From assembly GCA_035501255.1 (NCBI GenBank), contig DATJWM010000086.1, positions 8,203 through 72,202 on the forward strand: a DNA stretch of 64,000 nucleotides, given 5' to 3'. Each line of letters opens with the position of its first letter. The first letter of the stretch is position 1. The notes beneath the pieces are model-generated. The model was not told the DNA's origin and made no database searches. It worked only from the letters and a program-made list of their open reading frames with translations. Shown here one piece after another: positions 2 to 15,059 of this stretch. Both the position numbers and the translations under genes were made by a program. The DNA is from Mycobacteriales bacterium. Its GTDB lineage: Bacteria > Actinomycetota > Actinomycetes > JAFAQI01.

Positions 2-829
2 CCCCAGACCTACCGCAGGCCGACGCACCTCAATGTCACCGCGTCCTCGATTCCCCGCCGGGTCCTGGCCGCCTACGTCAACGCCGCCCGCCTCGCCGAC
101 CGGAACGACCAGGCCTGCGACCTGCAGTGGCAGACGATCGCCGGAATCGGGTTCATCGAATCCGACCACGCGCGTTCCGGGGGATCCGAGCAGCCACACT
201 GGGACGGCGTCGCGAATCCGCCGATCTACGGGCCTGCGCTCGACGGCGCGCATGGCTGGGCGCGCATCCCGAACACCGACCCCTCGATCGACGGTCCCGG
301 CCGCTGGGAGCGCGCCGTCGGACCGATGCAGTTCATTCCATCGACGTGGAACGCCTACGCCGCCGACGGCAACCATGACGGTGTCGAAAACCCGCAGGAC
401 ATCGACGACGCCACCCTCGCCGCCGCCGACTACCTCTGCGCCACGGGAAGCCACCTCGACCGACCCGCTGCGCTGATCCGGGCCGTTCACGCCTACAACC
501 ACTCCTATACCTACGTCCGCGAGGTCCTGACCGTCGCAGCGCACTACGAGGGCATCAACCCGGCCAAGCTCGGCGTGAACGGGTTGCCGGGCACCGCGAA
601 GCGCCGTGAACTTCGGCTCCGGATCACGATGCCGCCGGCCGACGCCACACCGACCCCGCCCGGACACCGGGGTTCAGGTTCATCGGCGCCGGACCCGACG
701 CCCACCTCGTCTCCGACCCATAGCCCGAAGCCGACGCCCTCCCAGCCACGACCGTCGGCGCCGACCTCGCCGACGACATCGCCATCCCCGACGGCGACCA
801 CGCTGCCCGGCCACGTGCCGGGCCACTAG
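2..829 (+). CDS. Lytic transglycosylase (SLT-like) domain protein, 5'-partial, with Pro/Thr/Ser-rich C-terminal tail
   Basis: Frame 2 is open from the window start. Motifs 'IAGIGFIESDHARSG' and 'RAVGPMQFIPSTWNAYAADGNHDGVENPQDIDDATLAAADYLC' are typical of actinobacterial transglycosylase SLT domains. The C-terminal PT-rich low-complexity tail ends at TAG 827-829. Confidence 0.6.
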   Translation, partial: PQTYRRPTHLNVTASSIPRRVLAAYVNAARLADRNDQACDLQWQTIAGIGFIESDHARSGGSEQPHWDGVANPPIYGPALDGAHGWARIPNTDPSIDGPGRWERAVGPMQFIPSTWNAYAADGNHDGVENPQDIDDATLAAADYLCATGSHLDRPAALIRAVHAYNHSYTYVREVLTVAAHYEGINPAKLGVNGLPGTAKRRELRLRITMPPADATPTPPGHRGSGSSAPDPTPTSSPTHSPKPTPSQPRPSAPTSPTTSPSPTATTLPGHVPGH

Positions 830-831
830 TC

Positions 832-1656
832 CTAGCCGAAGCGCCCGTGGACGTAGTCGGCGGTGCGCGCGTCCTTCGGGTTGTTGAAGATGTCCGTGGT
901 GAAACCGGATTCGACGATCGCGCCGGGAGTGCCCATCTCCGCGAGGAAGAACGCGCATTGCTGGGACACCCGCGCCGCCTGCTGCATGTTGTGGGTGACG
1001 ATCACGATCGTGACGTCATGATGCAGATCCGCGATCGTCTCCTCCACCCGCCGGGTCGAGGTCGGATCGAGCGCCGAACACGGCTCGTCCATCAGCAGCA
1101 CCTCCGGGCGCACCGCAAGGGCTCGGGCGATGCACAACCGCTGCTGCTGGCCTCCGGACAACGCCCCCCCGGCGTCTCCGAGGCGGTCCTTGACCTCACC
1201 CCAGAGACTGGCGCGGCTCAGGCATTCTTCGATCAAGTCTGCGCGTTCGGACTTCGACGGCGACGTGCCGGTCAACTTCAGGCCGGCCAGAACGTTGTCG
1301 CCGATCGACATCGTCGGGAACGGGTTCGGCTTTTGGAAGACCATGCCGATCTTGCGACGGGTCTCGGTGATCCGCTGACCAGGCGCATAGATGTCCACCC
1401 CGTCGAGAAGGACCTCGCCGGCTAGCTGCGCACTCGGTACCGATTCGTGCATCCGGTTGAGGATCCGCAAGAACGTCGACTTACCGCAACCCGAGGGACC
1501 GATCAGCGCGGTCACCGTCTTACCCGGCATCGCGAGGGACACCCGTTCGAGCACCTTGTTCGACCCGAACCAGGCGGAGATTCGCACCGCCTCGATCCCG
1601 CTGCCCTGGTTGGATTCGATGCGGAGCCCGGTGGCGGTCTCGTCAATCACCGACAC
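832..1656 (-). CDS. pstB: Phosphate ABC transporter ATP-binding protein PstB (orphan, PhoT-like)
   Basis: 274 aa with Walker A 'GPSGCGKST', signature 'LSGGQQQRL', Walker B 'LLMDEP' and the PstB-typical C-terminus '[19 protein letters not shown]'. Confidence 0.9.
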
Positions 1657-1871: not shown

Positions 1872-2798
1872 GTGTCGCGAGACCAGGTGCGTCGCGGCGC
1901 CACGCTGGTCGCCATCCTCGCCGCCGCCGCAGGAATGTCGCTGACCTCGACGGCAACGGCCGCAATCGCCGCGCCGAAGGCGAAGTGCGACCTCGCAGTC
2001 ACGACGCCGTACTCGGCGGATCGACCGCTTCGCCTGCCCCTCGTTCTCGACTCGACCGGCAACGCCTACTCGGGGAGCGCGGTATTTCGCTCGATCACCG
2101 TGTCGGACACCAGACGTTCGAACAAGCGCTGGACGCTCAAGGCGCTCGCCGGCCCGTTGAGCTTGACGCCGGCGCAAGGCACCGCCGTGGGCGGCACGGG
2201 TGACGGCCAGATCAACTCCCAGAACGTCGGCATCTCGGAGCTGACCACCCTGCGCGCATGGCATGGCTTTTCTCTCGCCCATCACAACCTCACCCTGATC
2301 AACCGGACCGCGGCCTCCCCACCTGCGCCGGCGGCGGCGAGAGGAGGCCTCGGACTGGGTGGCTCGAAGGCGCACCCGATCGCGACCGCGCTCCATGGCC
2401 GTGGCTCCGTGCGCATCGGTGGCGTGCTCACGCTCGACGCGCCGACCTCGACAGCGGCCGGAAGCTTCGTCGGCGAGGTGACCTTCACCGTTGGCTGTGG
2501 GCGGGTGGTGGTTCCCGTCAAGCCGCCCAAGCACCATCACCATCACCATCACCATCACCACCACCACCCGCATTCGCCCAGGCCGACGCCGACCCCCTCA
2601 TCGACGGTGAAAGCCACCGGGGTGCCACGCGGGACCACCAACGGAGGCGGCAACGGCGGCTCGGGAGGCGTGATGCCGTTCACCGGCTTCGACCTCGCTG
2701 GATTCGTCGTCGCTGCGATCATCGCCTTGGCGCTCGGAGCGCTGTTGGTGGTGGCCGGTCGACGGCGTTGGTCGCAGCCGTCAGGTCCTGGGACCTGA
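1872..2798 (+). CDS. Secreted protein with 13-His tract, PT-rich linker and C-terminal sorting-signal-like anchor (MPFTG + TM + RRR)
   Basis: N-terminal signal peptide 'LVAILAAAAGMSLTSTATAAIAAPKA'. Run 'KHHHHHHHHHHHHHPH' at 2532-2576. The C-terminus 'GGVMPFTGFDLAGFVVAAIIALALGALLVVAGRRRW' has the tripartite layout of a sortase sorting signal. The internal module 'LTLDAPTSTAAGSFVGEVTFTV' is shared with the 4986-6842 protein. Confidence 0.6.
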   Translation: MSRDQVRRGATLVAILAAAAGMSLTSTATAAIAAPKAKCDLAVTTPYSADRPLRLPLVLDSTGNAYSGSAVFRSITVSDTRRSNKRWTLKALAGPLSLTPAQGTAVGGTGDGQINSQNVGISELTTLRAWHGFSLAHHNLTLINRTAASPPAPAAARGGLGLGGSKAHPIATALHGRGSVRIGGVLTLDAPTSTAAGSFVGEVTFTVGCGRVVVPVKPPKHHHHHHHHHHHHPHSPRPTPTPSSTVKATGVPRGTTNGGGNGGSGGVMPFTGFDLAGFVVAAIIALALGALLVVAGRRRWSQPSGPGT

Positions 2799-3728
2799 CG
2801 CCGCGGACCTCCGCCGCCAGAGATAGGCACCGCCAACCCCGACGAGAACGACCGCAACGATCACGCCCGCAATCGCGCCGGCATCCGAGCCGCCGCCGGA
2901 CGAGGACGCGTTGTCCTGCGACGCCGCGCCGCTCGTCGTGTCCGGGCCGGGAGAGGTCGTGCCTGAACCCGAGGCTTGGCTCGACGCTCCGCTCGACGGC
3001 TGGGAGGACGGGGTGGACGTGGAGGCACCGAGCGCGGCCGCGCGGGCGGCGATGTTCGCGGCACGACCGATCGGAGCGCCGACCGACTTGGCTGCCACAG
3101 GTGAGAGCAGCTGTGGTCGGCCACGTCCCTGCTTGTTCCACTTCGGCAGCGCGGACTCCGGTGACACGGCCCGACCGGCGGTGCAGTTCACCCGCACGTT
3201 TGTGACGCTGTGCCATGTCGTTCCCGTGACGTCGATGAACGAAGCCGCGTAATTCGTCGAGTAACCGGTGTCGACGCTGCTGTAGAGCACACGCAGCTCG
3301 ATGTAGTGGCCCGCCATCGCCGGGTAGTCGTTGAGAAAGTCCGACAGAGCGAGGTCGCGGGAGGTCGCCTGTGCCATCGGCACGGAAGCGTTGGTGTAAA
3401 CGCTCGCTGCGGTCAGCGTGTCACCGCTCCATTGGGCCGCGTCGATCCCGGGTCGAGGCTGGAAGGCGTAGAGCGTTGCCTTGCGCCCCTTTCCATTGAA
3501 CGGCTGCGGCGCGGCAGCGGTGCTCACTGCGCGCCAGACGAACGGCTTGTCGTACACGCTGCCGTGCGTGATCTGCTGACCGTGGCTGTTGCAGAATCCC
3601 ACGTGCCCCTGGGCGTAGGGGTCGCTCGGTACCGGTGCCGAGGCGCGAGCCGGCACGGCCGCGACGGCGAGGGATCCGGCCGCAATCAGCGCGGCGGCTG
3701 TCAGAGTCGAGGTTCGGATCAAGCGCAT
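2781..3728 (-). CDS. Surface-anchored hypothetical protein (signal peptide, Ser-rich linker, C-terminal TM + RRR)
   Basis: 315 aa. N-terminal signal 'LTAAALIAAGSLAVAAVPARA'. Ser/Gly-rich stretch, then 'AIAGVIVAVVLVGVGGAYLWRRRS' at the C-terminus. No recognisable catalytic motif. Confidence 0.5.
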   Translation of the reverse strand: MRLIRTSTLTAAALIAAGSLAVAAVPARASAPVPSDPYAQGHVGFCNSHGQQITHGSVYDKPFVWRAVSTAAAPQPFNGKGRKATLYAFQPRPGIDAAQWSGDTLTAASVYTNASVPMAQATSRDLALSDFLNDYPAMAGHYIELRVLYSSVDTGYSTNYAASFIDVTGTTWHSVTNVRVNCTAGRAVSPESALPKWNKQGRGRPQLLSPVAAKSVGAPIGRAANIAARAAALGASTSTPSSQPSSGASSQASGSGTTSPGPDTTSGAASQDNASSSGGGSDAGAIAGVIVAVVLVGVGGAYLWRRRSAASGPRT

Positions 3729-3746
3729 GCGGTGTGCCTACCCTTT

Positions 3747-4871
3747 TCAGGTTGTTCCTGCCGAAGCCGGTCCGGTCGTGACCCGGGTCCCCCGCCGGAC
3801 ATTGCGCCTCCGTCGCACCGCAAAGACGGCGGCAGCAACGACGACGAGGATGAGCGCGAGCAGGATCCAGGGGATCGCGAGAAACGTTGCGCTCGCGGAC
3901 GCCGGCTCGGCGCCAGGGTCGACATCGCCCTCAGGGATGAGCGGAGTGAGAACGACGTGCGAGTGGTCGAAGATCGCGGGAGTGACGTCCTGCGCGTGCA
4001 CGGTGATCGACGCGGAATTGCCGGGCAGGAGCGCCGGGACGTTGCTGGCCGCAACCTTGACCGTCGAGCCGATCCAGCTGCTGACCGTCACCAGCTGGCG
4101 CGCACCCAGGTTGACGTTGCCGGTGTTAACCACCCGGTAACTGATCGTGGCGCTCCCTTTCCCGATCGGGTCGAGTGTTGCCGAATACGAGGTGTGCAGG
4201 CCTTCGACCTGAAGTTGTGGGTGCACCGGCCCGGACACCCGGATAGCGACCGGGACGGCCACCCGCTGCTCGAGCTTCGGGTTGACCTTCAGTCCTTTCC
4301 GGGTCTTCACCGCGGCGCTCAGCGAGGAGATGATCCCTGCCGTGTGGTCGCCCGGCGTCGCGTGGCGCGGGACATGCACCTGGACCGCCACGATCGCGCG
4401 GGATCGCGCCGGCACCCGAAGCACATGTCCGTGGTGCGGAAGACCGAGCGTGATCCATGCCCCCGCGTCGCGCGGGGTAGCCGCCTGCGGCTGAAGCCCG
4501 AGCTGTCCGTTCGCAGCGTTCGTCGCATCCCGTGCGTACAGCGCGAGCGTCAGAGGTTTCTTGGAAAAGTTCTCGATCCCGACATGGTCGTGAACGACCG
4601 CTCCAGGACTCACGAACCACTTGAAGTCCGGCCGCCCGTCGATCTTGTGCGCGTTGGCTGGCCCGATGCCCCACGCCAAACTCTTCGGCGACGGCGCGTT
4701 GTGGGTCGGCTCGTTGGCCGCGGGAACCGTGGCCGAGCCTCGGTCGAGCCAGTGCGACGGGCCGACGGTCGTGGCGATGGCGATGGCGAGGACGAGGACA
4801 AGCGCGCGGCAGATCCGATTCGCGGCCCTGCGGGCGAAGCGGTCGCGCGGGGTGGCCACACCGCTAGCCAA
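3747..4871 (-). CDS. Cell-surface protein with N-terminal signal/TM and C-terminal TM + RRRR tail (possibly DUF916/CscA-like, uncertain)
   Basis: 374 aa. N-terminal hydrophobic 'ALVLVLAIAIATTV'. C-terminus 'FLAIPWILLALILVVVAAAVFAVRRRRNV'. The central beta-rich region carries no enzymatic motifs. Confidence 0.45.
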   Translation of the reverse strand: MASGVATPRDRFARRAANRICRALVLVLAIAIATTVGPSHWLDRGSATVPAANEPTHNAPSPKSLAWGIGPANAHKIDGRPDFKWFVSPGAVVHDHVGIENFSKKPLTLALYARDATNAANGQLGLQPQAATPRDAGAWITLGLPHHGHVLRVPARSRAIVAVQVHVPRHATPGDHTAGIISSLSAAVKTRKGLKVNPKLEQRVAVPVAIRVSGPVHPQLQVEGLHTSYSATLDPIGKGSATISYRVVNTGNVNLGARQLVTVSSWIGSTVKVAASNVPALLPGNSASITVHAQDVTPAIFDHSHVVLTPLIPEGDVDPGAEPASASATFLAIPWILLALILVVVAAAVFAVRRRRNVRRGTRVTTGPASAGTT

Positions 4872-4985
4872 GCCCGGGCGAGTGAACGCCCGTAAATCCG
4901 AGGATGAACAAGAAGCAAAGAGGTCCGGGCGGGCGCTCCACGCGCCCGCCCGGACCCTTGATCCTTCACGAACCTCCAGGGCCGG

Positions 4986-6842
4986 TTAGACCAGGCTTCC
5001 CACGAGGGTGAAGGTGATGGTGCCGGTGAACAAACCCGCCTCGGTGGAGCTCGGGGCGTTGAGGGTCAGCAGACCGGTCAGACCGATCGAACCAATCCCC
5101 TGCTGGGCCTGCGCGATGTCGTGCGCGCCGTTGCCCAGACCCGCAGTGCCGAGGTCCGTCGGCGCGACGGCCGGGTAGGCAGCCGGGTTGGCGAACGTCG
5201 TGAAGTTCGACGCGAGCCCGTTGAACCCGTTGCCACTGACCGGAACCTCGGTCAACCCGGTGAGACCGACGTCCTCACCACTGATCTGCGAACCGGCGTT
5301 GGACCCACCGTCACTCAGCGTCGACGCCGCCGCCTGGGCGGTCCAGGGCAGGTCACCGGCTCGGGTGTCGGTGACGTAGATGTCCTGCGTCGGGTCCGTC
5401 GCGCTTCCGCCGAAGGTAGCGCTCGCCGAATACACCGTGCCCGTGCTGTCCAGGTGCATGGTGCCCAGGTTCAGCGGGTTCTGGTTGGAGTACGGCGTGG
5501 TGATGCTCAGCACACCCTGCGGGATCGTGGCCTCGATGTTCTGCACGTCGGTGCACTGTGAACCGGTCGAGGCGCACGGACCGTTCGGGTTCGCCGACTG
5601 GCTGAACGTCGACGCCGCCGAGGTGGACGTTGCGCAAACCGTCGCGTCGGACGGGCTGAACACCGCGGTGATCGAGTGCGAGCCCGGCGAGTTGAACGTG
5701 TTGGTCGCGTCGAACTCGTTCGGCGTGCCCGGCTTCGGGCTAATCGGTCCTGCAACCTTCGTGGTGTCGTCGTAGAAGTTGACGGTACCGGTGCAGGCCG
5801 AAGCCGACCCGTAGTCCACCGTTGCCACGTAGCTGTTCTGGTCGCCGGCGTACTGACCCGGTGTCACCGACAGGTCGGTGCTCGTGGCCGGCGCCGGAGG
5901 CGCAACCGAGAACGGCACTGTTGCCGAGGTGGATGTCGTCAGGCTGGTGCCGATGTAGGGAGCGAACTGTGCCGTGAAGCTGTGCGTCGACGGGTTCGCA
6001 ACGCTGTCAGTCACGCTCGCCGTGTACGGGCCGGACCCGGACACGAGCTGGGTGGTCCCCACCTGGGTGGCGCCGTCGAAGAACGTCACCGTCCCGATCG
6101 GCCCGGTGTAGCTGCTCGGGACCGCGCTCGCGGCACTCACCGACGCGTTCAGCGTGACGCTCTCCGGGTTGTTCGAGGAGGTGTCCGGGCTGGTCGGCGA
6201 GGTGTGCAGCGTCGTGGTGGTCGTGTCCGTGGCGTCGGGGTAGGTGCCCGAAGCCGGGTACACGACCTGCCAGGTGTCCGCGCTCGGGTTGACCTGGATG
6301 TCGAGCGTGTCGTACTGCGTGGTGTCCGGCGGCTGGCCGGTTCCCGAGGTGTAGATCCGCAGCTGGTAGAGGTTCTGGTAGCCGCTGGTGCTCAGGTTGT
6401 TCGGGTACTCCCCGATGTAGTCGTTCATCGACAGGTCGGTCGACCCGCCGGTGACGAAAGGCAGCCCCGGAGTGCTGACGGCACTCGGCGTTCCGCTCGG
6501 AACCGGGCTGTAGGTCCCGGCGCTGAGCACGTCACTGCTCCAGGTCTGCGGGTTGCTTCCGGGCACCGGCGTAGCGACGTACAGCTGCGCCTTGGAGTCG
6601 CCCGAGCGACCGGCGTGGGACGCGATCGCGTAAGCGGCCAACGGGTGACCATCCAGGCTGCCGCCGGTAATCGGGGCACCCGAGGAGTTGAGCAGCGTGA
6701 TTGTTCCGATGGAGTTCGGGTCCGGTTCCCACCCGACGCTTGTCGTGGTGGCGGACGCGACGCCGCTCGCCGCGAGCACTAGCCCGCTCGCGAGCGCCAG
6801 GGATCCTGCCCCGGTAAGCGCACGTTTGAAGTTGGTTCGCAC
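4986..6842 (-). CDS. Large secreted Thr/Ser-rich repeat protein; N-terminal domain paralogous to the 16461-17585 product; C-terminal module shared with the 1872-2798 product
   Basis: 618 aa with signal peptide 'LALASGLVLAASGVASA'. N-terminus 'TTSVGWEPDPNSIGTITLLNSSGAPITGG...AYAIASHAGRSGD..QLY' matches 'TTPGWEPDPNAIGSITLYDSSGSPITSG...AYAVATHAGRSGD' in the 16461 gene. The C-terminus ends '...LTLNAPSSTEAGLFTGTITFTLVGSLV'. Confidence 0.6.
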   Translation of the reverse strand: MRTNFKRALTGAGSLALASGLVLAASGVASATTTSVGWEPDPNSIGTITLLNSSGAPITGGSLDGHPLAAYAIASHAGRSGDSKAQLYVATPVPGSNPQTWSSDVLSAGTYSPVPSGTPSAVSTPGLPFVTGGSTDLSMNDYIGEYPNNLSTSGYQNLYQLRIYTSGTGQPPDTTQYDTLDIQVNPSADTWQVVYPASGTYPDATDTTTTTLHTSPTSPDTSSNNPESVTLNASVSAASAVPSSYTGPIGTVTFFDGATQVGTTQLVSGSGPYTASVTDSVANPSTHSFTAQFAPYIGTSLTTSTSATVPFSVAPPAPATSTDLSVTPGQYAGDQNSYVATVDYGSASACTGTVNFYDDTTKVAGPISPKPGTPNEFDATNTFNSPGSHSITAVFSPSDATVCATSTSAASTFSQSANPNGPCASTGSQCTDVQNIEATIPQGVLSITTPYSNQNPLNLGTMHLDSTGTVYSASATFGGSATDPTQDIYVTDTRAGDLPWTAQAAASTLSDGGSNAGSQISGEDVGLTGLTEVPVSGNGFNGLASNFTTFANPAAYPAVAPTDLGTAGLGNGAHDIAQAQQGIGSIGLTGLLTLNAPSSTEAGLFTGTITFTLVGSLV

Positions 6843-7012
6843 TACAGTTTTCTCCTTTAGGAAGTGTCCAGATGCGAAAAGTCGGTCATCATGGACACGG
6901 GCTGGGCCCGTGCCCGGTCCAACGAGACCCTCTCCCCGGCGCCCGGTCCGAAGCCAAAGGCGCCGGGGAGAAGGGTTTTCTGCGGTTATTGCAACTTCAC
7001 CGCCAGGGTGAC

Positions 7013-8290
7013 TCAGCCGGATGAAACGTCGCCGAGGTCCTGGTAGTTCGGGGTGAAGTAGGCCGCGCTGATGTCCGGAGCGTTCGACGCCCGAGCGATC
7101 CAGCTGGTGCTGCCCTTCAGCAGGTCGTTCACGAAGTTCTTCGTGCCGCCTGGCTGGGAGGGCTTACAGCCGGAGTAGCTCGACGACGCACAAGTTCCCG
7201 AACCCGGCGTCAGGCCGAGGTCGTAGTCACGGGCGATGAAGTACAGCCCGCGGGTCGAGTCGTACACCGAGTCGCTGTGTGAAGTGTCGCTGTCGCTGGC
7301 CGGCTTCTGGTCAGCGGACGGGCAGTTCGGCGTCATGTCACCGGTGGTGCAGCCGCTGATCAGCGAGATGTTGAAGTTGGATGCGGGCTCCTGGCTGTTG
7401 CCGTAGTAGCCGCTCTGGATGAGGTTGATCTTGCCGACCGAGAACGGCTCGATCGCGTCCGCCGGAGTCGCCGCCAGCGTGACGCCGGTCGGGTCGTGCT
7501 CCTCACTGATCCGGATGCAAGTGCTCGAACTGATCGTCGAGTCGGACACACCGATGTCGGACTCGAAGAAGTTGCGAGTGCCCGAGCCGGACTGCGGGAT
7601 CACCGGAATGATGTGGTCGGTCGAGGCGCCGGAAGGCGCGCCCGGAACCTCAGCCCACTCGATTCCCTGGCTGCCGTCGCAGTGGCTGTAGATGTAGGCG
7701 AGTTGCGTGCCGTCAAGCGGGAAGCCGTTGAAGCTCACGCTCGACTTCGCGATCTCCAGGTTGTCGGTGGCGAACTGGAACACGTGCAGACCACCGCAGT
7801 CCGTGATACCGGCGCACGACGTCTGCTCCGAGCCCTTCGGCAACCGGGACGCACGGGAGAAGGTGAGCGACCCGGTTGGCAACCCTTGGTAGCCGCCGCC
7901 ACCGACCGAGTCCGCGATCAGCGCGCTGATACCCGCACCCGAGCCATCCGGACGCTCGACCGGCTTCGTGCCGGCCCGCAGCACCGCCGACGTTGTGCCG
8001 TTGCCGTAAAGCAACGCACCGGTGGAGTCGTAGAGCGCCCGGCCGTTGCCGTCACCGGTCGCGAAGTAGTTGTAGACGCTGTTCGTCTTGCCCGTGTTGT
8101 ACGCCGGGTCACCCGCGACGTCACCACTGAACAGGAAGTCCGCAGCGTTCTGAACCGTGTCAGAGCCGACAGCGACCGCGTCGCCCGGACGTGCTTGCGG
8201 ATCGGCCCACGCCGGCTGCATTGCAAACAGCAATGCGGCGGTGGTCCCCGCGGCACCGAGCGCCAGAGTCGCCCTTGCCTTTCTCGACAT
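7013..8290 (-). CDS. Secreted PstS-like (periplasmic binding protein superfamily) domain protein, divergent
   Basis: 425 aa with signal 'LALGAAGTTAALLFAMQPAWA'. 'AVGSDTVQNAADFLF' and 'IIPVIPQSGSGTRNFFESDIG' resemble the 'GSGSTW...' and 'IPIVPIVHSEGSGTSYQF' segments of the PstS at 12274-13956. Assigned by resemblance only. Confidence 0.4.
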   Translation of the reverse strand: MSRKARATLALGAAGTTAALLFAMQPAWADPQARPGDAVAVGSDTVQNAADFLFSGDVAGDPAYNTGKTNSVYNYFATGDGNGRALYDSTGALLYGNGTTSAVLRAGTKPVERPDGSGAGISALIADSVGGGGYQGLPTGSLTFSRASRLPKGSEQTSCAGITDCGGLHVFQFATDNLEIAKSSVSFNGFPLDGTQLAYIYSHCDGSQGIEWAEVPGAPSGASTDHIIPVIPQSGSGTRNFFESDIGVSDSTISSSTCIRISEEHDPTGVTLAATPADAIEPFSVGKINLIQSGYYGNSQEPASNFNISLISGCTTGDMTPNCPSADQKPASDSDTSHSDSVYDSTRGLYFIARDYDLGLTPGSGTCASSSYSGCKPSQPGGTKNFVNDLLKGSTSWIARASNAPDISAAYFTPNYQDLGDVSSG

Positions 8291-8460
8291 TCGCCCTCCT
8301 TGGAGGCAGTGCGGAGCCTTTCTCCGCCGGGGCGACCCTAGAGGCCCAATCGGGCTATCAAGCCGCTAGATCCTGAACAGCAGACGAACGATCACCACAA
8401 TCGCGCGATAGGCCTGCTATCGCGCGAGGCGGATGGGCTCCGTGTGACCACGGAGCGTCA

Positions 8461-9441
8461 TCACAGAAGGTTGGGGAGTAGCCGCGCTGCGGTCTCGGTC
8501 ACGACCCAGAGGATCGCGAGCATCGCCGGAACGCCGACCAGCCAGACCTGGCGGCCGCCCCATCGTCGATGCGCCCACACGAAGCCGATCCCGACGACGA
8601 CCAGCAGCTCCAACCAGAGCACCAGCGGGGTGAGCGCGGTGCGATCGATTGCCATCGCCACCTGGTTGGAGGGCTGAACCGTCGGTCCGCCTCCCGGCGA
8701 AGGTTGCGCCTTGCCGACCAGGTTGGCGTCGACGTAGACAACCTGAGAGGGCGCCCACCCACTGCGCCATCCGCTGCCCTCTGCGCTGACCAGAGTGAGG
8801 CGACCCTGGCCGGACGAGAGCAGCGGTGGTACCGGATCGCCAGGCCGTCGTACGTCGGTGACGCGATAGGTGAATGTGCCCTGACCGGTCACTGCCGTGA
8901 TGCCATCACCCGGTTGCAGCCGGGTGATGTGGGCAAACGGTGCACCAAAGGTGGCGCTCTTGCCAAAGACCACGCTCACGCCTGCCTGGCCGGGCAGAAC
9001 GGTGTCCACCCGGTGTCCCGGCCCCTTCTGCAAGTCGGTAGAGGTCGTGCCCTCCACCACAACGGCGCGGTTGATGCCGGCCTGGGAGGCGCTGATGAGA
9101 GCCACCGGCGCACCGTCGGTGATTTGCCCCCCCAGCGGCGCAACCTCGTTGGCCAGATCCGCCCGCAGGCTCGCGTACATCTGCGCCTGTGTGTGCCTCT
9201 CCTGAAAGCCGCTCAGCACCAACGCATACAGCACCACCCAAAACGCGAGTGCACACAACAGCGCGAGAACCACCAGGACCGTTCCGCCGGGTCCGGTGGA
9301 CGGCGGTCCGCCGGCCGCCCACACCGCGCGCATCCGTGCTCCGGACCGCTGGCGCCAACCCGCGAACCCTCCGGCCTCCGCCGGAGCTGACGCCGCGCCC
9401 GGATCGGAAGTGGGCGCCTTGTCCGCCACGCGGGTGCTCAT
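8461..9441 (-). CDS. Sortase-fold membrane protein (class E-like) lacking the catalytic cysteine (TLxTC replaced by 'TLVSA')
   Basis: 326 aa with an N-terminal TM helix. Sortase hallmarks 'GHRVDT', 'TFGAPFAHITRLQPGDGITAVTGQGTFTYRVTDV' (GAPF..L..GD.I......TY.V) and 'LTLVSAEG' at the TLxTC position. The DNA reads 'gtc agc gca', so the loss is not a single-base artefact. The only Cys lies in the TM helix. Two extra C-terminal TM helices. Confidence 0.6.
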   Translation of the reverse strand: MSTRVADKAPTSDPGAASAPAEAGGFAGWRQRSGARMRAVWAAGGPPSTGPGGTVLVVLALLCALAFWVVLYALVLSGFQERHTQAQMYASLRADLANEVAPLGGQITDGAPVALISASQAGINRAVVVEGTTSTDLQKGPGHRVDTVLPGQAGVSVVFGKSATFGAPFAHITRLQPGDGITAVTGQGTFTYRVTDVRRPGDPVPPLLSSGQGRLTLVSAEGSGWRSGWAPSQVVYVDANLVGKAQPSPGGGPTVQPSNQVAMAIDRTALTPLVLWLELLVVVGIGFVWAHRRWGGRQVWLVGVPAMLAILWVVTETAARLLPNLL

Positions 9442-9448
9442 CGGCCGA

Positions 9449-12325
9449 TCACGTCTTCGCGCCCGTTCGGCGCCAACCCCGGACCAACCGGGGTCCGATC
9501 ACCGCGATTGCGGTGACGACCGCCGCCAACAAGACGATCGGGATCGCGATACCCAACGGACCGACCGGCGTCGCGGGAGTCGCCACGGCGGCCGGGCTGG
9601 CACTCTCGCTCGGGGACGAAGCGGGAGACGACGCGGAGGTGGACGAACTCGGTTGTGGCGACGTTCCTCCGTCGCTGTGGGTCGAAGTCGGGCCGGGCGT
9701 TCGGGAGACCGGTGGCGTCGAGCGCTGTGACGACGGCTCGGTCTGGGTCGGTGTGGGGGTCGGATCAGGGCAACCCGACCACTTCGACCTCGTCTGCCCG
9801 GAGCCGTTGATGTTCGGGATTTCGCACTGCTGGTCCGAGACGGCCTGCGCTGCCCGAGCCGTATACGCCGACTCCGCGCCAAGGCCGTTCGCCGCGGTCA
9901 TCGGCAGGTAGCCCGGCGGAAGGTCGCCGAAGGAGTTGCCGGGCGTCTGCCCCGCCTTCGCCGCGAACGACAGCTGCTGGGCAAACGCGCTCGCCGCCTC
10001 AGACGACAACCCCGCACTCGGCACGCTCTCCGACACAAGCATCGTGCCCGGATATGCATGAGCAGTGCTGGAGCCGCTCCGCAGCTTGCCGTAGTCCATC
10101 GACCACGCGTTCATCGACGGATCGGGCTTCAGCGCACTCACTGCGCTGCGCATCGTCTTGGTTGATGCCCGCACGAACGTGCCATCCGCAGGGCCGTGGA
10201 TCTTCGACGTGGGTGACACCGACGACCGCGTCTCCAGCAGCGCGGTGTCGAGGTCGTAGCGTTTGGCCTCCGACAACGACACCACGCCGAGCATGAACCG
10301 CACGCCGGGCTGCTGACGAGGGTCGGCGCTGATCTTGTCGGCCGCCGCCACCGTGGCGATCGTGCAGTTGGTCGTCGAGTTCGGCAGTCCGAACTCCATG
10401 TCATAGGCGGCCGTGGACAGGCTCAGCACCGGGGCGGCAACCAGCGGGAGATACGGCACCTGGAACTGGGTCTGGGCGAAGCATCCTGACTTGTCGGCGT
10501 TGTAGGACTGGGTGGGGACGAAGGTGTCCTTGAGCGGCCAGAAGTCGACCGGAAGCTTCATCCCCTTGTATGCGGGATTGACCACCATCCCCCACGGATC
10601 GGGCTTGCCGTTGATGAACGCCCGGGCGGCCGGGTCAGCCTCGATGTAGGAGGTCAGGGCGCGCATGATGTCGGAGTTCGAGGACAACGCCATCAACTCG
10701 GCCCGGGCCTCGTAGTAGATCAGGTAACCCGGCTGCGGGCTCGCCTTCGGGATGTCGGGGTTAAGCGCTTGGAATTCCGGGTCATCGGTGATGTTCAGCG
10801 GGTTGTCGGCCATCGGACCGGGTGTCGTACCGCCGTCCGGAGAGCCGTCGTCCTGAGCAACCTCGTCGAGCACCGGGTAGGACTCGGTGAGTAACTTTGC
10901 GAGCAGCCTCGGGTCCAGCCTGACATCGAAGACCTCGTTATGGTCGCCGTCGTCGACCAGCGTGGCGATGGCAAACCCGTTGACCGCGACCGGTGCATTG
11001 ACGACGGGATGCCCCGACTTGCCCTCGGGTTTGGAAGGGTAGGTGTCATACGCAGCCTGAATGTTGCCTTCGGACAGGCTGTTGACGGAGGCCGGCTCCG
11101 CCTGCGGGACCTGTGTGAACGGCGTACGCTTCGGATCCGTGCAGAACGCCGGCGCCCACTGTTGGGCGGCCTCGGTCATCAGCTCCGAGCCGTACACGAA
11201 GACCGCGGGCTTGCTGCCGACCACCGAGCAGTAGTCCGCCGGCTTGGCAAAACTCAGCGGCACGGTGATGCGATTGCGCCAGTTCGACGCCGACCACCAC
11301 AAGGCGCCGGTGACGGACTCGAGCGCCATGTTTCCCGGATCACCATCAAGCTCGCGGGTTGCGTTCTCGGCCTGCCCCGACTGGTCGTCGGAGTAGGTGC
11401 AGTTGGCAATGTCCTGCGCACTGAGATCACCCCTGGCCTGCTCGTCACAACTCATCCCGTCGATCGGGATGACGACGAGCGAGCAGGGCACCGACGACGA
11501 ACAGCCGAGGGTCGCGTTGGTCTCGTCGCTCCAGAGAACGAACTTTGCGAGCCCGCTCCCATCGCTCCCGGTCGTGCCAAAAGTGGTGTTGTCCGGAAAG
11601 TCCGCCGTGAACGTACCCTGCTCGGGGGCCAGCTTGCTGCACGCCACCGTGGGACCGCTGTAGTAGGTCTTGCCATTGGCGCCGTCGAGAGGCTGGAAGT
11701 AGTCCGCCTCGTTGAGCGCGTACTTGCTGCAACCAGTGGGCAACGGCTTTGGAACGTTGTTGAAGGCGGGGAGATTTCCCGCGTAGCGATCCATTCGCCA
11801 CGGTGGGTAGTCAGTACCGGGCGCGGTCGCGTTGCGCTCACTCAGGTACTGCGTCCAGCAAGTGTTGGGGCTCAACCGCTGCGCAGCGGGCGCCTTGGAC
11901 GAGTCGACACCCCGGCACTCGAGGACCACGACCGGGTACTCCTCGAGGGTCGCCGCGGTCGAGGAGTTCGGGTCAGGATCGACGTAGTTGCTGGGATGCG
12001 CCCCCTTCCACGAAACGTTGATCTCCTGCAAGGTGCGCAGCTGCTTGGTCGCACTGACACTCACGGTCACTTTCCGCTTGTCGACGGTCTTGGTCTTCCC
12101 GTCCGGAAGAACGTCGCTGCGAGTGATCTGCTTACTGACCGTGACCGCGCCGGCGCCCGCAGCGCTCTTGGCCTGAGCCGCTCCCGAGGCGCCCGCGGCG
12201 CCTGCGACCTGCGCCAGGGAGCCGGCCGCGATCAAAGCCGCCGCAGCGATCGCGACCGCCCGACGCCGGCTGCTCACGACGCCGCACCCGGCGGCGGTGC
12301 GCCGGGCTTGGACCAGCGCCGCCAA
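9449..12325 (-). CDS. Large (~945 aa) surface-anchored Cys-containing hypothetical protein; PT/S-rich linker + C-terminal TM + RR tail
   Basis: Longest ORF on the track. The true start is probably the GTG near 12280 ('VSSRRRAVAIAAAALIAAGSLA' signal peptide), immediately after the pstS stop. The C-terminus reads 'PDPTPTPTQTEPSS...PVGPLGIAIPIVLLAAVVTAIAVIGPRLVRGWRR'. No recognised catalytic domain. Confidence 0.55.
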   Translation of the reverse strand: MAALVQARRTAAGCGVVSSRRRAVAIAAAALIAAGSLAQVAGAAGASGAAQAKSAAGAGAVTVSKQITRSDVLPDGKTKTVDKRKVTVSVSATKQLRTLQEINVSWKGAHPSNYVDPDPNSSTAATLEEYPVVVLECRGVDSSKAPAAQRLSPNTCWTQYLSERNATAPGTDYPPWRMDRYAGNLPAFNNVPKPLPTGCSKYALNEADYFQPLDGANGKTYYSGPTVACSKLAPEQGTFTADFPDNTTFGTTGSDGSGLAKFVLWSDETNATLGCSSSVPCSLVVIPIDGMSCDEQARGDLSAQDIANCTYSDDQSGQAENATRELDGDPGNMALESVTGALWWSASNWRNRITVPLSFAKPADYCSVVGSKPAVFVYGSELMTEAAQQWAPAFCTDPKRTPFTQVPQAEPASVNSLSEGNIQAAYDTYPSKPEGKSGHPVVNAPVAVNGFAIATLVDDGDHNEVFDVRLDPRLLAKLLTESYPVLDEVAQDDGSPDGGTTPGPMADNPLNITDDPEFQALNPDIPKASPQPGYLIYYEARAELMALSSNSDIMRALTSYIEADPAARAFINGKPDPWGMVVNPAYKGMKLPVDFWPLKDTFVPTQSYNADKSGCFAQTQFQVPYLPLVAAPVLSLSTAAYDMEFGLPNSTTNCTIATVAAADKISADPRQQPGVRFMLGVVSLSEAKRYDLDTALLETRSSVSPTSKIHGPADGTFVRASTKTMRSAVSALKPDPSMNAWSMDYGKLRSGSSTAHAYPGTMLVSESVPSAGLSSEAASAFAQQLSFAAKAGQTPGNSFGDLPPGYLPMTAANGLGAESAYTARAAQAVSDQQCEIPNINGSGQTRSKWSGCPDPTPTPTQTEPSSQRSTPPVSRTPGPTSTHSDGGTSPQPSSSTSASSPASSPSESASPAAVATPATPVGPLGIAIPIVLLAAVVTAIAVIGPRLVRGWRRTGAKT

Positions 12326-13956
12326 AGTAGCGGCGGAACGATCAGTGCGGCGAGGAACAGACCGACAGCGAGGAGCCCTAACGCCGTGCTGTTGTCCTGA
12401 CCGTCGGCGACCGTCACCGGCTCACCCTCAACGTTGGCGTTCGTGGTCCCCCCGGTCGATCCGACCCGCTGGCCGGTCACCGGATCGACCGGACCCGTGC
12501 TTGCCGATCCCGTCTTGGTCCGCCCGTTGCCGGATCCCGGCGAGGTCGGGCCCGGAGTCCCGCCTCCCTGGTTGGACCCGCCACCACCGTTCTTTTTGCC
12601 GCCGTCACCGCCCTGCGTTTTGCTCTGGTTCTGCTTCACGCTGGTGATCGAGGGGCCGGTCGAATCGTTGGGGGTCGTGCACGGTCCGTGACCCTGCTCA
12701 TCGCACAGCGGAGGCTCGGGGGCGATCTTGGCGAGGTAGTTCTCGGCGGGGTGGTTGGCGACGAAGGTCGGGTTCCCGCACGTGCTCACGTTCAGGTTGT
12801 TGAGCGAGACCTTCGAGTCAGCCTTGTGCAGCAACCCGATCTGCTGGAACCCTGCCTCCACCAGGTTGATCGGCAAGGCGGAGTACCCGAGGCCGCCGAC
12901 CGCGCCTTGGCCCTGGCAGATCGAGGTGTACAGAAAGTCGGCGAGAGTCTGGCGCTTCGGCGACGTCATCGTCCGGTCGCTGCTCGACGTAGGGATGATG
13001 CCGTAGGAGTACGACGAGACGGGATAGGTCCGTTTGTCGTTGTACCCGTATACGTCCTTCAAATTCTCGAGCAGGTAGTTGTTCGAGTGCCGGTTGTAGT
13101 TGATGATCGCTTTCGTCAACGCCACGGCCACGTTGTACTGCGTCGGGAGCGTGTAGTACCCCGCGGTGTTCTCGACCTTGGCGACCGGAATCTTCTTCGC
13201 GATCGCATAGGAATACTCGTCGTAGCCGATCGTCCCCTGCCCGGACGACGATGCGATGTAGTTCATCAACTGGTCCGAGCCGTTCTGAGCAATCTGTCCG
13301 GACTTGCCGCTCGGCCAGTACTCCGTCGGCTTGTCAGCTCCTGCAAAGCCGGTCCACAGGCTCCTGTCCTCCTGGGCGAGATACGCGGAGAACTGGTAGC
13401 TCGTGCCCGATCCCTCCGAATGCACGATCGGCACGATCGGGATCGAGGGGAACTTCCGACCGTTGTTGTCCGCAGAGATGTGGGAGTCGTCCCAGTTCTT
13501 GATCTGCCCGGTGAAGATCTTGGCAAGAGTCGGCCCTGACAACCGGAGGTTGCGCACGAGCTTGCCGGCCACGGTCAGGTGATATGGGAACGAGGTACCA
13601 CCGGCAACCAGTGGTACATAGGCGTATGGTCGCCCGTTGGACGTGTCGGACACGCCGGTCAGCGGGTCGTGACCCTGGAATCCGATGTCGGACACCGCGA
13701 AGTCGACCGCTTTGTTGGCGAAGTCCTGACGGCCCGCCGCCGAGCCGTTCCCGGTGAAGGTCACCCGCAGACCTTGTCCTGACACCTCGCCGATCCAGGC
13801 GTTGACCGCGTTGTAGGCCCAGGTCGAGCCGGAACCGTTGATCTGCGCCGTGCCGGTGGCGTACGACGGCGTCGCGGTCAGTGCGACCAGACCGGACGCG
13901 GCACACAGGGACAAAACCCGCGCCCGGGCGCGGCCGGCGCGGCGGTGTCCGGTCAT
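12274..13956 (-). CDS. pstS: Phosphate-binding protein PstS with Gly-rich C-terminal extension and C-terminal TM anchor
   Basis: Start ATG 13954-13956 overlaps the pstA stop (ATGA). Signal 'VLSLCAASGLVALTATPSYA'. PstS core motifs 'NGSGSTWAYNAVNAW', 'SAAGRQDFANKAVDFAVSD' and 'SEGSGTSYQF'. Then a 'GGDGGKKNGGGGSNQGGG' linker and 'ALGLLAVGLFLAALIVPPLLWRRW' at the C-terminus. The upstream part of ORF 12274-14271 is an unsupported extension. Confidence 0.8.
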   Translation of the reverse strand: MTGHRRAGRARARVLSLCAASGLVALTATPSYATGTAQINGSGSTWAYNAVNAWIGEVSGQGLRVTFTGNGSAAGRQDFANKAVDFAVSDIGFQGHDPLTGVSDTSNGRPYAYVPLVAGGTSFPYHLTVAGKLVRNLRLSGPTLAKIFTGQIKNWDDSHISADNNGRKFPSIPIVPIVHSEGSGTSYQFSAYLAQEDRSLWTGFAGADKPTEYWPSGKSGQIAQNGSDQLMNYIASSSGQGTIGYDEYSYAIAKKIPVAKVENTAGYYTLPTQYNVAVALTKAIINYNRHSNNYLLENLKDVYGYNDKRTYPVSSYSYGIIPTSSSDRTMTSPKRQTLADFLYTSICQGQGAVGGLGYSALPINLVEAGFQQIGLLHKADSKVSLNNLNVSTCGNPTFVANHPAENYLAKIAPEPPLCDEQGHGPCTTPNDSTGPSITSVKQNQSKTQGGDGGKKNGGGGSNQGGGTPGPTSPGSGNGRTKTGSASTGPVDPVTGQRVGSTGGTTNANVEGEPVTVADGQDNSTALGLLAVGLFLAALIVPPLLWRRWSKPGAPPPGAAS

Positions 13957-15059
13957 CGAACGGAGCCCTTCTGACGGGATGCGAGGAAACGAATGAGGAC
14001 GAAAACGACCAGCACGATGATGAGCAGCAGGCTCGCGGCACCGAAGGCGCGGGTGATGAAGTTGGGCTCGCCGCTGCGCACGCCCGAGTAGACGAACAGC
14101 GGCAAGGAGTTCATCGGGTTGTTGACCGGGTTCGTGTTGAAGTACGTCGACGCACCTGAGGTGATCAAAACTGGCGCTGTCTCGCCGACGGCCCGAGCGA
14201 ACGCGAGAATCAACGCGGTCGCGAGACCGGCTCCGGCCGTTGGCAGCACCACCCGCCAGACCATCCGCCACTTCGGAGCACCGAGCGCGAGCCCCGCCTC
14301 CCTCAGCCCGCCCGGCACAACCCGAAGCGAAAGCTCAGCCGATCGCGCGATGATCGGCAGCATGGTGATGGTGAGTGCGATCGCGGCGGCGAGTCCGCTC
14401 TTTTGCATCCCCAGGCCGACGATCAGCAGGGTGTAGACGAACAAACCGGCGATCAGGTCAGGAAGGGCGGTCATCGCCTCAACGACGGTTCGCACGGTAC
14501 GCGCGAGCGGGCCACCAACCTCCGTCATGTACACGGCGGTCGCGATTCCGAGCGGAAGTGCGACCGCGGTCGCGATCGCCAGTTCGATCAGGCTGCCGAC
14601 CACCGCGTGCAAGACACCACCGCGAGTCAGCGGATCCGTCGGCTGCACCGCGTTCATGTCCTGGGTGTAGAAGTTCATGTGGTGGAGCGCCGGCCACCCG
14701 CGAACGAACGTGTAGATGATCGTGGTGGCCAGGGCGAAGGCGACGATCCCCGCCCCGGCACAGATGATCGCGCGCATGAGTCGATCCACGACGACCGGGC
14801 GCGGGTGCGACATCGCGGTGACCGCGGTGTACAGCGCGAGGAAGCTGAGATACCAGCACACGATGAAGCCGAGCAGGCCATGTTCCGGAAGGAGCTCGCC
14901 GTAGACGATCCAGACGGCGCCGAGCGATCCGAACAGCGAGCCGAAGAAGGACAGCACGTCATCGGTCGTCCGGACGGCGAGCTCGCGCGGACGGTCCTCG
15001 CCGGCACCATCGGGGAGGTTGCCGGACACGGACGGCATCGGCAGTGACTCGGTCGACAT
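13953..15059 (-). CDS. pstA: Phosphate ABC transporter permease PstA
   Basis: 368 aa with 6 TM helices. ABC permease EAA-like region 'ARAVGETAPVLITSG'. Position after pstC and before pstS. Its stop overlaps the pstS start. Confidence 0.8.
   Translation of the reverse strand: MSTESLPMPSVSGNLPDGAGEDRPRELAVRTTDDVLSFFGSLFGSLGAVWIVYGELLPEHGLLGFIVCWYLSFLALYTAVTAMSHPRPVVVDRLMRAIICAGAGIVAFALATTIIYTFVRGWPALHHMNFYTQDMNAVQPTDPLTRGGVLHAVVGSLIELAIATAVALPLGIATAVYMTEVGGPLARTVRTVVEAMTALPDLIAGLFVYTLLIVGLGMQKSGLAAAIALTITMLPIIARSAELSLRVVPGGLREAGLALGAPKWRMVWRVVLPTAGAGLATALILAFARAVGETAPVLITSGASTYFNTNPVNNPMNSLPLFVYSGVRSGEPNFITRAFGAASLLLIIVLVVFVLIRFLASRQKGSVR

Follow-up and report, generated by a model that had tools for sequence, protein, structure and literature searches.

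C-terminal membrane anchors, a sortase-fold pseudoenzyme and a Pst-type importer in one gene row of a Mycobacteriales bacterium

Five predicted surface proteins of a Mycobacteriales bacterium end alike, in a low-complexity linker, a hydrophobic helix of ~22 amino acids and a cluster of arginines, and are encoded beside a gene for a sortase-like protein. The stretch of DNA concerned, referred to here as the window, comprises 64,000 nucleotides (GenBank assembly GCA_035501255.1, contig DATJWM010000086.1, positions 8,203 to 72,202), and all positions below are counted from its first letter. The question raised by this locus, and by its initial annotation, is whether the tails constitute a degenerate sorting-signal family which is serviced, or merely recognised, by the neighbouring protein, or whether they are C-terminal membrane anchors. 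Judged from their sequences, the five tails are anchors of several origins and not one sorting-signal family. The sortase-like protein, termed the pseudo-sortase below, has a near-obligate, translationally coupled link with a Pst-type importer and with two PstS-fold proteins tethered by transmembrane (TM) helices, here termed PstS-long and G958. The explanation which we consider probable, though far from assured, is that the tails would function as stop-transfer anchors, and the pseudo-sortase, without catalysis, as a scaffold of sortase fold for a phosphate importer with tethered PstS proteins.

When a single genome was scanned for each species, 76 pseudo-sortase loci emerged, from Actinomycetes (Mycobacteriales, Frankiales, Micromonosporaceae, Streptosporangiaceae, Kitasatospora, Nocardioidaceae, Micrococcales, Bifidobacteriaceae and Nanopelagicales) and also from Acidimicrobiia. 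Synteny was counted in the 48 independent loci with at least 7 kb of upstream sequence, where a Pst permease is present in all 48, and PstB, PstS-long and G958 in 47 each. Genes of a second block (E425-D618-C374-B315), referred to here as the WxL block, are found in 33/48 loci and are missing from 15 which keep the pseudo-sortase. Of 62 loci, 46 have the pseudo-sortase gene immediately after that of G958 (38 loci) or PstS-long (8 loci), and the others are ambiguous owing to overlapping high-GC open reading frames (ORFs). The order recurs, with 4-nt overlaps, in the gene tables of three homolog contigs. The proposal that the tails are merely recognised by the neighbour is conceivable for PstS-long and G958 only; both are found in 47/48 loci with translational coupling, whereas the WxL-block proteins are absent from about one third of the loci. 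One locus (L081; P0184) carries a 1,211-aa in-frame fusion of G958 and the pseudo-sortase with a consistent topology, the only such fusion; an apparent PstS::G958 fusion (P0222) was rejected as an artefact, its middle part being Arg-rich and out of frame.

In the window, which has a GC content of ~66-69% and encodes one protein with 100% identity to that of a Mycobacteriales metagenome-assembled genome (P0121), genes were called on the basis of GC content at third codon positions, giving ~55 supported genes. The tight row on the minus strand consists of pstC, pstA, PstS-long, G958, the pseudo-sortase, E425, D618, C374 and B315, followed by the convergent A308 gene on the plus strand and then by pstB:

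15059-16243 (-): pstC permease, first gene of the operon; NCBIfam TIGR02138, 244 bits (cutoff 196); 1-nt overlap with the start of pstA
13953-15059 (-): pstA permease; NCBIfam TIGR00974, 212 bits (cutoff 193); its stop overlaps the PstS-long ATG by 4 nt
12274-13956 (-): PstS-long, 560 aa; signal peptide, PstS domain, ~150-aa stalk, C-terminal TM helix and basic tail
12472-12486 (-): DPVTG island in the PstS-long stalk (aa 491-495)
12307-12384 (-): PstS-long TM helix (aa 525-545, ending in IVPPLLW) and RRWSK
9449-12325 (-): G958, 958 aa; signal peptide, Cys-rich beta domain(s), PstS-fold domain, disordered stalk and TM helix
9467-9583 (-): G958 tail; juxtamembrane island (aa 915-923), helix (aa 924-945, with ..IAIP..) and RLVRGWRR
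8461-9441 (-): pseudo-sortase, 326 aa
8947-8967 (-): FGKSATF motif with Lys161 at the catalytic-His position, from alignment to the class E and class F sortase structures 5uus, 5go5 and 5go6
8776-8799 (-): LTLVSAEG, the TLxTC equivalent, in which Ala220 replaces the catalytic Cys
7013-8290 (-): E425, secreted, without anchor; weak PstS-like match (TIGR02136; e-value: 0.004)
4986-6842 (-): D618, large WxL-like protein with immunoglobulin-like (Ig-like) repeats, without anchor (Big_3_5; e-value: 9e-10)
3747-4871 (-): C374, WxLIP/DUF916-like, 374 aa; FLAIPW, TM helix (nt 3816-3884) and RRRRNVRR
2781-3728 (-): B315, 315 aa; D618-like N-terminal domain, Ser/Gly stalk, TM helix (nt 2817-2882) and RRRS
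1872-2798 (+): A308, 308 aa; WxL-like domain, His12 tract (nt 2532-2567), stalk, MPFTG (nt 2673-2687), TM helix (nt 2694-2759) and RRRW
2763-2816 (no strand): inverted repeat across the region in which the 3' ends of A308 and B315 overlap
832-1656 (-): pstB ATPase; TIGR00972, 333.5 bits, marginally under the cutoff of 343.2

The junctions from pstC through the pseudo-sortase gene are overlaps of 1 or 4 nt or a gap of 7 nt, and the true start of G958 is likely the GTG at 12277, overlapping the PstS-long stop by 4 nt. A strong, GC-rich, terminator-like hairpin of 16 bp is located directly 3' of D618 (4921-4957, minus strand) and divides the row into pstC...D618 and C374-B315 transcription units.

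The neighbour is indeed sortase-like in its fold, and departs from the sortases in its missing catalytic His and Cys. Its predicted layout comprises a first TM helix (aa 54-76), a long helix, a beta-barrel (aa ~110-245) and a C-terminal TM hairpin (aa 270-290 and 299-315) with the end LLPNLL. An AlphaFold2 (AF2) model (predicted local distance difference test, pLDDT: 85; predicted template modelling score, pTM: 0.76) likewise shows the N-terminal TM helix running into the long helix, an eight-stranded barrel and the C-terminal hairpin, and in Foldseek it matches the sortases 4d70, 5go5 and 5uus (e-value: 1e-8 to 1e-10; target-normalised TM-score: 0.71-0.78). The Pfam Sortase model (PF04203) scores 42.6 bits against a cutoff of 26.6, but covers aa 125-198 only, and the NCBIfam class_E_sortase model scores 64.2 bits, under its cutoff of 160. 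The N-terminal TM anchor and eight-stranded barrel are features of class E sortases, such as Streptomyces coelicolor SrtE1, S. avermitilis SrtE and Corynebacterium diphtheriae SrtF, with which the motifs VVEGT, GPGH, PGQ.G, G.PF and GD.I are also common, and the protein shares 31% identity with the class E structure 5go5 (target-normalised TM-score: 0.71). Unlike class E sortases, it does not keep the class E Tyr, it carries an extra TM hairpin ending in LLPNL, with invariant Trp and Pro residues, and its gene sits in a Pst operon rather than beside those of LAXTG substrates.

Residue columns were counted in an alignment of 91 pseudo-sortase relatives. The catalytic-His column (AGH-R; His251 in SrtE1) holds Arg in 73 and Lys in 18, the latter including Lys161 of the window, while the catalytic-Cys column (TLxTC; Cys320 in SrtE1) holds Ala in 39, Ser in 38, Val in six, Thr in five, Leu in three and Cys in none, the window sequence being LTLVSA; any Cys in the ectodomain occurs in only 7/91. 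The thioacyl chemistry of sortases has been described (PMC5148588). Since both catalytic residues are lost in all 91 relatives, the pseudo-sortase cannot cleave or transfer, and the suggestion that the tails are serviced by it must be abandoned. By its residue columns, the protein is a conserved pseudoenzyme and not the product of a decayed gene, and the absence of both the catalytic His and Cys places it outside the sortase enzyme family. In class E sortases a Tyr reads the Ala of LAXTG (PMC5148588), and the corresponding column holds Tyr in 4/91 relatives. Arg226, which is kept in 80/91 (88%), lies six residues past the Cys position, against nine for the strand-beta8 Arg of SrtE1, and may correspond to the substrate-binding Arg. 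The family has 1,559 database matches, the best 120 of which score at least 289 bits, and the named ones carry the NCBI or JGI labels 'class E sortase' or 'sortase A'. In the literature, of which coverage was partial and thus no proof of absence, neither a natural sortase pseudoenzyme nor a PstS-sortase link was found, and no description of the family or of the Pst-linked module was found in Pfam, NCBIfam or the partially covered literature.

All five ORFs with the shared ending are present, each with an N-terminal signal-like segment and a C-terminal tail. In A308, the motif MPFTG (aa 268-272) is followed by an uncharged helix of 22 aa (aa 275-296) and RRRW; the 22-aa helix of B315 (aa 283-304) is followed by RRRS, that of C374 (FLAIPW...; aa 330-352) by RRRRNVRR, that of G958 (aa 924-945) by RLVRGWRR and that of PstS-long (aa 525-545) by RRWSK. 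The 60 aa ahead of each helix are 47-82% Gly/Ser/Thr/Pro/Ala, and three to seven Arg/Lys fall within the 12 residues past each of the five uncharged ~22-aa helices. The architecture that had been annotated is thus confirmed for A308, B315, C374, G958 and PstS-long, with the correction that the interval 2781-12325, to which it was assigned, omits two of the five genes. The observed clustering near the sortase-like gene is also borne out, as a signal peptide with a single C-terminal TM helix is found in 5/12 genes of the cluster and 0/43 others in the window (Fisher p = 2e-4), so that the tails are enriched here; otherwise only polytopic permeases end in a helix in the window. Across the 76 related loci, 29% of module ORFs and 7% of flank ORFs were positive for this architecture, in a crude test which counted 22 pseudo-sortase ORFs as positive.

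The five proteins are not tail-anchored proteins in the strict sense, as had been considered, for all five have an N-terminal, signal-like hydrophobic segment with an Ala-x-Ala-type site; what stands of this proposal is that the tails appear to be membrane anchors, lacking LPXTG in four of the five. The signal peptides imply a type I topology, and the domain types of the five (PstS, WxL, Ig-like, or many conserved Cys) are extracytoplasmic. A hydrophobic segment followed by a basic C-terminal cluster, a feature of LPXTG signals, occurs in all five. A pentapeptide of the LPXTG/LAXTG type just before the helix, however, is absent from B315, C374, G958 and PstS-long of the window and is present in A308, where MPFTG lies 2 aa ahead of the helix. 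The statement that only one of the proteins has a pentapeptide-like motif therefore holds directly before the membrane, but overlooks DPVTG in PstS-long, at aa 491-495 and ~30 aa before the helix. The tails look alike because stop-transfer anchors and LPXTG signals both follow the hydrophobic-plus-positive-inside rule and not because they form a common family, and the shared grammar is itself ordinary, being the common logic of stop-transfer anchors. For A308 and B315 the resemblance extends to the termini (SGPGT and SGPRT before the stops), which is not an independent similarity, as a single inverted repeat (2763-2816) spanning the 18-nt overlap of the genes supplies both, one from each strand. 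Its 26-nt arms (2763-2788 and 2791-2816) are 77% complementary, with a perfect 9-nt stem (GTCAGGTCC/GGACCTGAC), and it encodes RRRWSQPSGPGT and a stop on one strand and RRRSAASGPRT and a stop on the other. The repeat may be a bidirectional terminator which doubles as coding sequence.

The tails have at least four separate origins, which speaks against a single degenerate sorting-signal family. The C-terminal helix and basic cluster are kept in 45/52 PstS-long, 44/55 G958, 28/30 C374 and 20/28 B315 orthologs. E425 orthologs have a C-terminal TM helix in 0/34, and only 3/31 D618-like proteins have one, all three with an LPXTG-type signal (LPHTG, LASTG and LPRTG). Among the tails with a helix, a strict LPXTG-like motif before it is found in 0/44 for G958, 0/28 for C374, 3/20 for B315 and 3/45 for PstS-long, in the last case always at least ~22 aa from the helix. 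Each family has its own consensus: ..L(E)LL......PP....RRR plus two stalk islands in PstS-long; G-x-T-x-x-x-x-x-G..G..LP..L.LA.L.G......GR.R in 55-56 G958 orthologs, with LP at the start of the helix and Thr916 at least 90% conserved; and F(W/L)A(I/V)PW, helix and poly-Arg in 28/30 C374 orthologs. LAQTG in two Marmoricola PstS-long tails and LPLTG at locus L078 were considered as sorting signals and rejected, as neither is conserved and LAQTG lies ~22 aa from the helix. LPXTG-type signals (LPHTG, LASTG, LPRTG) do occur inside the same clusters, in D618-like paralogs (L011, L024, L026 and L027) and in a B315 homolog (L020 and L021). Loci of the Acidimicrobiia type (L044, L045, L047, L052, L053, L061, L073 and L080) recurrently encode proteins of ~250-340 aa upstream of the module, with no family assignment and ending in LTWR(L/V)P, a TM helix and a basic tail; these are probably further module members.

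The exception among the five tails is that of A308. In five of its six full-length relatives the helix is immediately preceded by (L/M/S/T)(P/A/R)(F/L)TG, in one of them as the canonical LPFTG; the endings of relatives are LPFTG, SPFTG, TAFTG or LRLTG with a TM helix and RRR, and A308 itself gives weak matches to the NCBIfam LAXTG models. The motif is, on this conservation, a genuine LPXTG-type sorting signal. As the window encodes no active sortase and no other LPXTG-type signal, the sortase acting on A308 must be encoded elsewhere. The Dactylosporangium homolog of B315 (38% identity over the N-terminal domain; e-value: 1e-29) ends in LPRTG, a TM helix and RRR, and also carries a lipobox (LLAAC); since the window B315 has a plain anchor, the anchor type interchanges within this family. 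A run of 12 His in A308 (aa 221-232; nt 2532-2567) follows ...VVVPVKPPK, and a stretch rich in His is also kept in relatives (KPPKRHHHEHHHKHHHKHH, HPKHHHHHHHHKKPHH), suggesting that the stalk binds metal.

A308 belongs with the block that is facultative in the synteny, whose genes resemble the WxL/Csc clusters (CscA, which is a WxLIP, and CscB, CscC and CscD). The Csc cast consists of a DUF916 protein, large and small WxL proteins and an LPXTG element, and CscA has a C-terminal TM helix (PMC1534035); WxL proteins have been described almost wholly from Lactobacillales and Bacillales, and the WxLIP proteins are defined by DUF916, DUF3324 and a C-terminal TM helix (PMC10599100), so that a helix in C374 is a family trait. 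The window block has the DUF916-like protein with a TM helix (C374), a large (D618) and a small (A308) WxL-like protein and an LPXTG-type anchor. Unlike its counterparts in Lactobacillales and Bacillales, it is found in Actinomycetota, its own proteins fall below the Pfam cutoffs, its second 'WxL' reads (T/S)F(T/S)(V/L), its LPXTG signal is on the small WxL protein itself and it is physically joined to a Pst-type transporter. C374 scores 25.2 bits against Pfam WxLIP_PGBD (DUF916), under the cutoff of 27.3, and its L002 homolog also matches weakly; an NCBIfam GVDTG_CTERM match (19 bits; cutoff 29) was dismissed as noise arising from the TM and Arg composition. D618 combines an N-terminal domain common with B315 (BLASTP e-value: 1e-11), Big_3_5 repeats and a C-terminal WxL-like domain. 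Its C-terminal 230 aa align with those of orthologs, and Pfam WxL (PF13731) matches four of the 12 aligned domains (best e-value: 2e-5) but not D618 or A308 of the window themselves. The N-terminal 223 aa of A308 are 40% identical to the D618 WxL-like domain, and A308 has a 'WTL' motif.

The transporter itself resembles canonical PstSCAB, with PstC and PstA over the equivalog cutoffs and PstB just under. PstS-long matches Pfam PBP_like_2 (e-value: 4e-33) and aligns with the Escherichia coli and Mycobacterium tuberculosis PstS structures (80 bits), while its score against TIGR00975 PstS (175 bits) is below the cutoff of 205. G958 is a second PstS-fold protein. It has ~300 additional residues at the N-terminus, among which conserved Cys are frequent, its stalk (aa 861-924) is disordered and the AF2 model places a helix at aa 924-952; E425 shows no sequence similarity to G958. 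Canonical PstS is normally a lipoprotein or periplasmic protein of ~320-370 aa, whereas the module has two or three PstS-fold proteins; long stalks and C-terminal helices are present on two of these, and the extra N-terminal residues on one. In the pocket of PstS-long the Thr10, Asp56 and GSGT equivalents are kept, and the equivalents of E. coli Arg135/Asp137 are His/Glu in the window and RSD in many orthologs. Its orthologs (L005-L080) thus fall into two pocket variants, V(V)RSDGSG, which has the canonical Arg/Asp, and V(V/L)H(S/A)EGSG, to which the window protein belongs; this division hints that the ligand or the pH optimum has shifted in some members. At locus L048, an uncultured Actinomycetes metagenome-assembled genome (MAG), a canonical pstSCAB operon adjoins the module head-to-tail and encodes a PstS of 419 aa which lacks a C-terminal helix, indicating that the module is a paralogous, second Pst-type system.

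Tethering by a C-terminal helix has been described for other importers. The archaeal binding proteins of the oligopeptide class (Sulfolobus, Aeropyrum) combine a signal peptide of the SPase I type with a stalk rich in Ser/Thr and a TM helix at the C-terminus (PMC3387779), and as substrate-binding proteins of ATP-binding cassette (ABC) importers they parallel the tethered PstS-fold proteins, while differing in their archaeal origin, their binding-protein class and the lack of a sortase-fold partner. In C. diphtheriae, the ABC-transporter-associated ZnuE and ZnuF have a signal peptide, C-terminal TM helix and basic tail without a sortase motif; ZnuE fractionates with the membrane, and ZnuF is associated with the wall independently of six sortases, by a route which is not known (PMC12445094). 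These proteins and the Hta/Cht-type heme proteins resemble those of the window in signal peptide, TM helix, charged end and position beside an ABC importer of an actinobacterium, and differ in ligand and fold, with no pseudo-sortase having been reported.

On the preferred explanation, that of stop-transfer anchors and a non-catalytic scaffold, each of the five proteins would comprise a Sec signal peptide, an outside domain, a flexible stalk, one TM helix and a cytoplasmic Arg cluster, and the tails would stay in the membrane, A308's excepted. The locus would then consist of two modules. The first would be a Pst-type importer (pstC, pstA, pstB) with PstS-long and G958 tethered by their C-terminal helices instead of the usual N-terminal lipid, together with the pseudo-sortase, which would hold these proteins at PstCA through its ectodomain and/or its TM hairpin. 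The second, facultative module would be an actinobacterial, WxL/Csc-like surface cluster (C374, D618, B315 and A308). On their stalks, the binding domains would extend into the wall or beyond it, and the WxL-like layer may add wall-bound partners. The anatomy, the lost catalytic residues, the folds, the synteny and the conserved tails are observed, the physical association and the phosphate function are what we infer here, and several points weigh against the latter two. No simple charge or polar covariation was detected between TM2 of the pseudo-sortase (WLE/QLL; E/Q) and the PstS-long helix (LELL or none). The sub-cutoff PstS score and the His/Glu pocket pair leave phosphate insecure as the ligand, and membrane retention cannot be assumed from sequence when ZnuF, with a tail of like kind, is wall-associated (PMC12445094). 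The contig which carries the fusion of G958 and the pseudo-sortase is from a nanopore MAG, and as its PstS-long gene is broken the fusion is possibly an artefact.

How the pseudo-sortase would contact its partners may be reflected in the stalk of PstS-long. The pattern [DN]P.TG occurs in 31/51 orthologous tails, 63-81 aa from the C-terminus except in a frameshifted ORF (L033; 106 aa), while shuffled tails give a mean of 0.58 matches (maximum 4). Its logo, (V/I/C)(D/N)PxTG(Q)(V/P/C)(V/I)G, stands out in an otherwise unconserved stalk, and in Micrococcales positions -1 and +6 are jointly replaced by Cys (C-DADSG-V-C). A second stalk island, P(V/T)x(L/V), is found ~12 aa before the helix. The first island resembles LPXTG and the class B motifs NPXTG and NPQTN, and one rival explanation is that the pseudo-sortase is a non-catalytic receptor which clamps (D/N)PxTG of PstS-long, and perhaps GxTxG of G958, in its LPXTG groove, a degenerate signal meeting a degenerate enzyme. 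We regard this as unlikely. It would account for the fixed distance of the island from the helix within low-complexity sequence, for the conservation of barrel residues despite the loss of the nucleophile, Arg226 being a possible substrate-binding Arg, and for a B315-family tail (L011) with DPMTG ~9 aa before the helix; the scarcity of the class E Tyr would also permit a Pro in the motif (PMC5148588). The island is ~30 aa from the helix, however, farther than canonical signals, and the pentapeptide is absent from G958 (0/55), the commoner direct neighbour. The logo also fits a small beta-hairpin better. In a DPETG (chignolin-type) beta-hairpin, positions -1 and +6 pair across the turn, and because the logo and the Cys...Cys swap match these cross-strand positions, a small docking hairpin is rated above a mimic of a sorting signal as the putative role of the island. 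A more specific form of the scaffold explanation, which we offer tentatively and think rather less likely to be right than wrong, is that a sortase turned pseudoenzyme has become a fixed importer subunit which docks two tethered PstS-fold receptors, perhaps via the (D/N)PxTG-like islands, in a surface-reaching capture complex often accompanied by a WxL-type wall layer.

Alternatively, some of the tails without LPXTG may be cleaved and linked to the wall by an enzyme encoded elsewhere, either a relaxed sortase of class E/F or a system like that of ZnuF. The wall association of ZnuF without a sortase motif (PMC12445094), the active sortase which the A308 signal implies for this organism and LAQTG in the two Marmoricola proteins point in this direction. 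This is nevertheless quite improbable, given the distance and poor conservation of LAQTG, the conserved intramembrane motifs (LELL..PP in PstS-long; LP...G in G958), which suggest that the helices persist in the mature protein, and the need for a binding protein to remain near its permease.

It is also conceivable that the pseudo-sortase is unrelated to the tails, serving as a partner only of PstCA, of peptidoglycan or lipid II, or as a regulator of an active sortase, with the tails as generic anchors of co-regulated envelope proteins. Such a role is compatible with the negative result on covariation, and the TM hairpin could dock on the permease alone, but we judge it very unlikely as the pseudo-sortase gene is adjacent to, and translationally coupled with, that of a TM-tethered PstS-fold protein in at least 46/62 loci, and as the C-terminal helix at L048 is on the PstS paralog of the module and not on the canonical PstS. 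Least probable of all is that the five tails form one degenerate sorting-signal family handled or recognised by the neighbour, for although they lie within 12 kb beside its gene and relatives of B315 alternate between a plain anchor and LPRTG, the tails differ in family-specific features and histories, the WxL-block genes are missing from 15/48 loci which keep the pseudo-sortase, so that the synteny already disfavours it, the WxLIP helix also occurs in Firmicutes without such a partner (PMC10599100) and the pseudo-sortase has no catalytic residues.

Further genes were observed around the row. A PPK2 polyphosphate kinase (18337-19281, minus strand; TIGR03707, 373 bits; cutoff 302) is encoded 2 kb from the Pst-like operon, which is consistent with a phosphate-related neighbourhood. 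Divergent from pstC, a gene at 16461-17585 (plus strand) encodes a secreted 374-aa protein with a weak match to the ZirU family (Ig-like), homologs of which recur at the ends of many related loci. Short peptides in this protein (ATHAGRSGDDHAQLYAYTP, TDLSMDDYI) resemble the D618 N-terminal domain by eye, and a BLASTP comparison of the protein with D618 gave no significant match. The ORF at 326-829 (plus strand), beside pstB, has a short N-terminal match to lytic transglycosylases (MltB; e-value: 5e-6) followed by a Pro/Thr/Ser-rich tail.

The module is a variation on known elements, namely the sortase fold, the Pst importer and the WxL cluster, and C-terminal TM anchors are already known from WxLIP/CscA, Corynebacterium and the archaeal binding proteins. 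It joins three things which had not been linked before: a sortase-fold pseudoenzyme, a Pst-type importer with helix-tethered receptors and a WxL/Csc-like cluster outside Firmicutes. The catalytic His and Cys are missing from more than 1,000 database proteins which bear the label 'class E sortase' or 'sortase A', and these should not be counted as sortases when anchoring is predicted in Actinomycetota. Cultured carriers of the module are found in Curtobacterium, Kitasatospora phosalacinea, Dactylosporangium, Rugosimonospora, Rarobacter and Glaciihabitans. The module further bears on the question, raised by ZnuF, of how actinobacterial proteins with a signal peptide, C-terminal TM helix and basic tail, yet no sortase motif, are positioned in the envelope. 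If the docking of the two receptors by the pseudo-sortase is true, it would represent the first natural non-catalytic sortase and a new class of accessory subunit for binding-protein-dependent importers in Actinomycetota.

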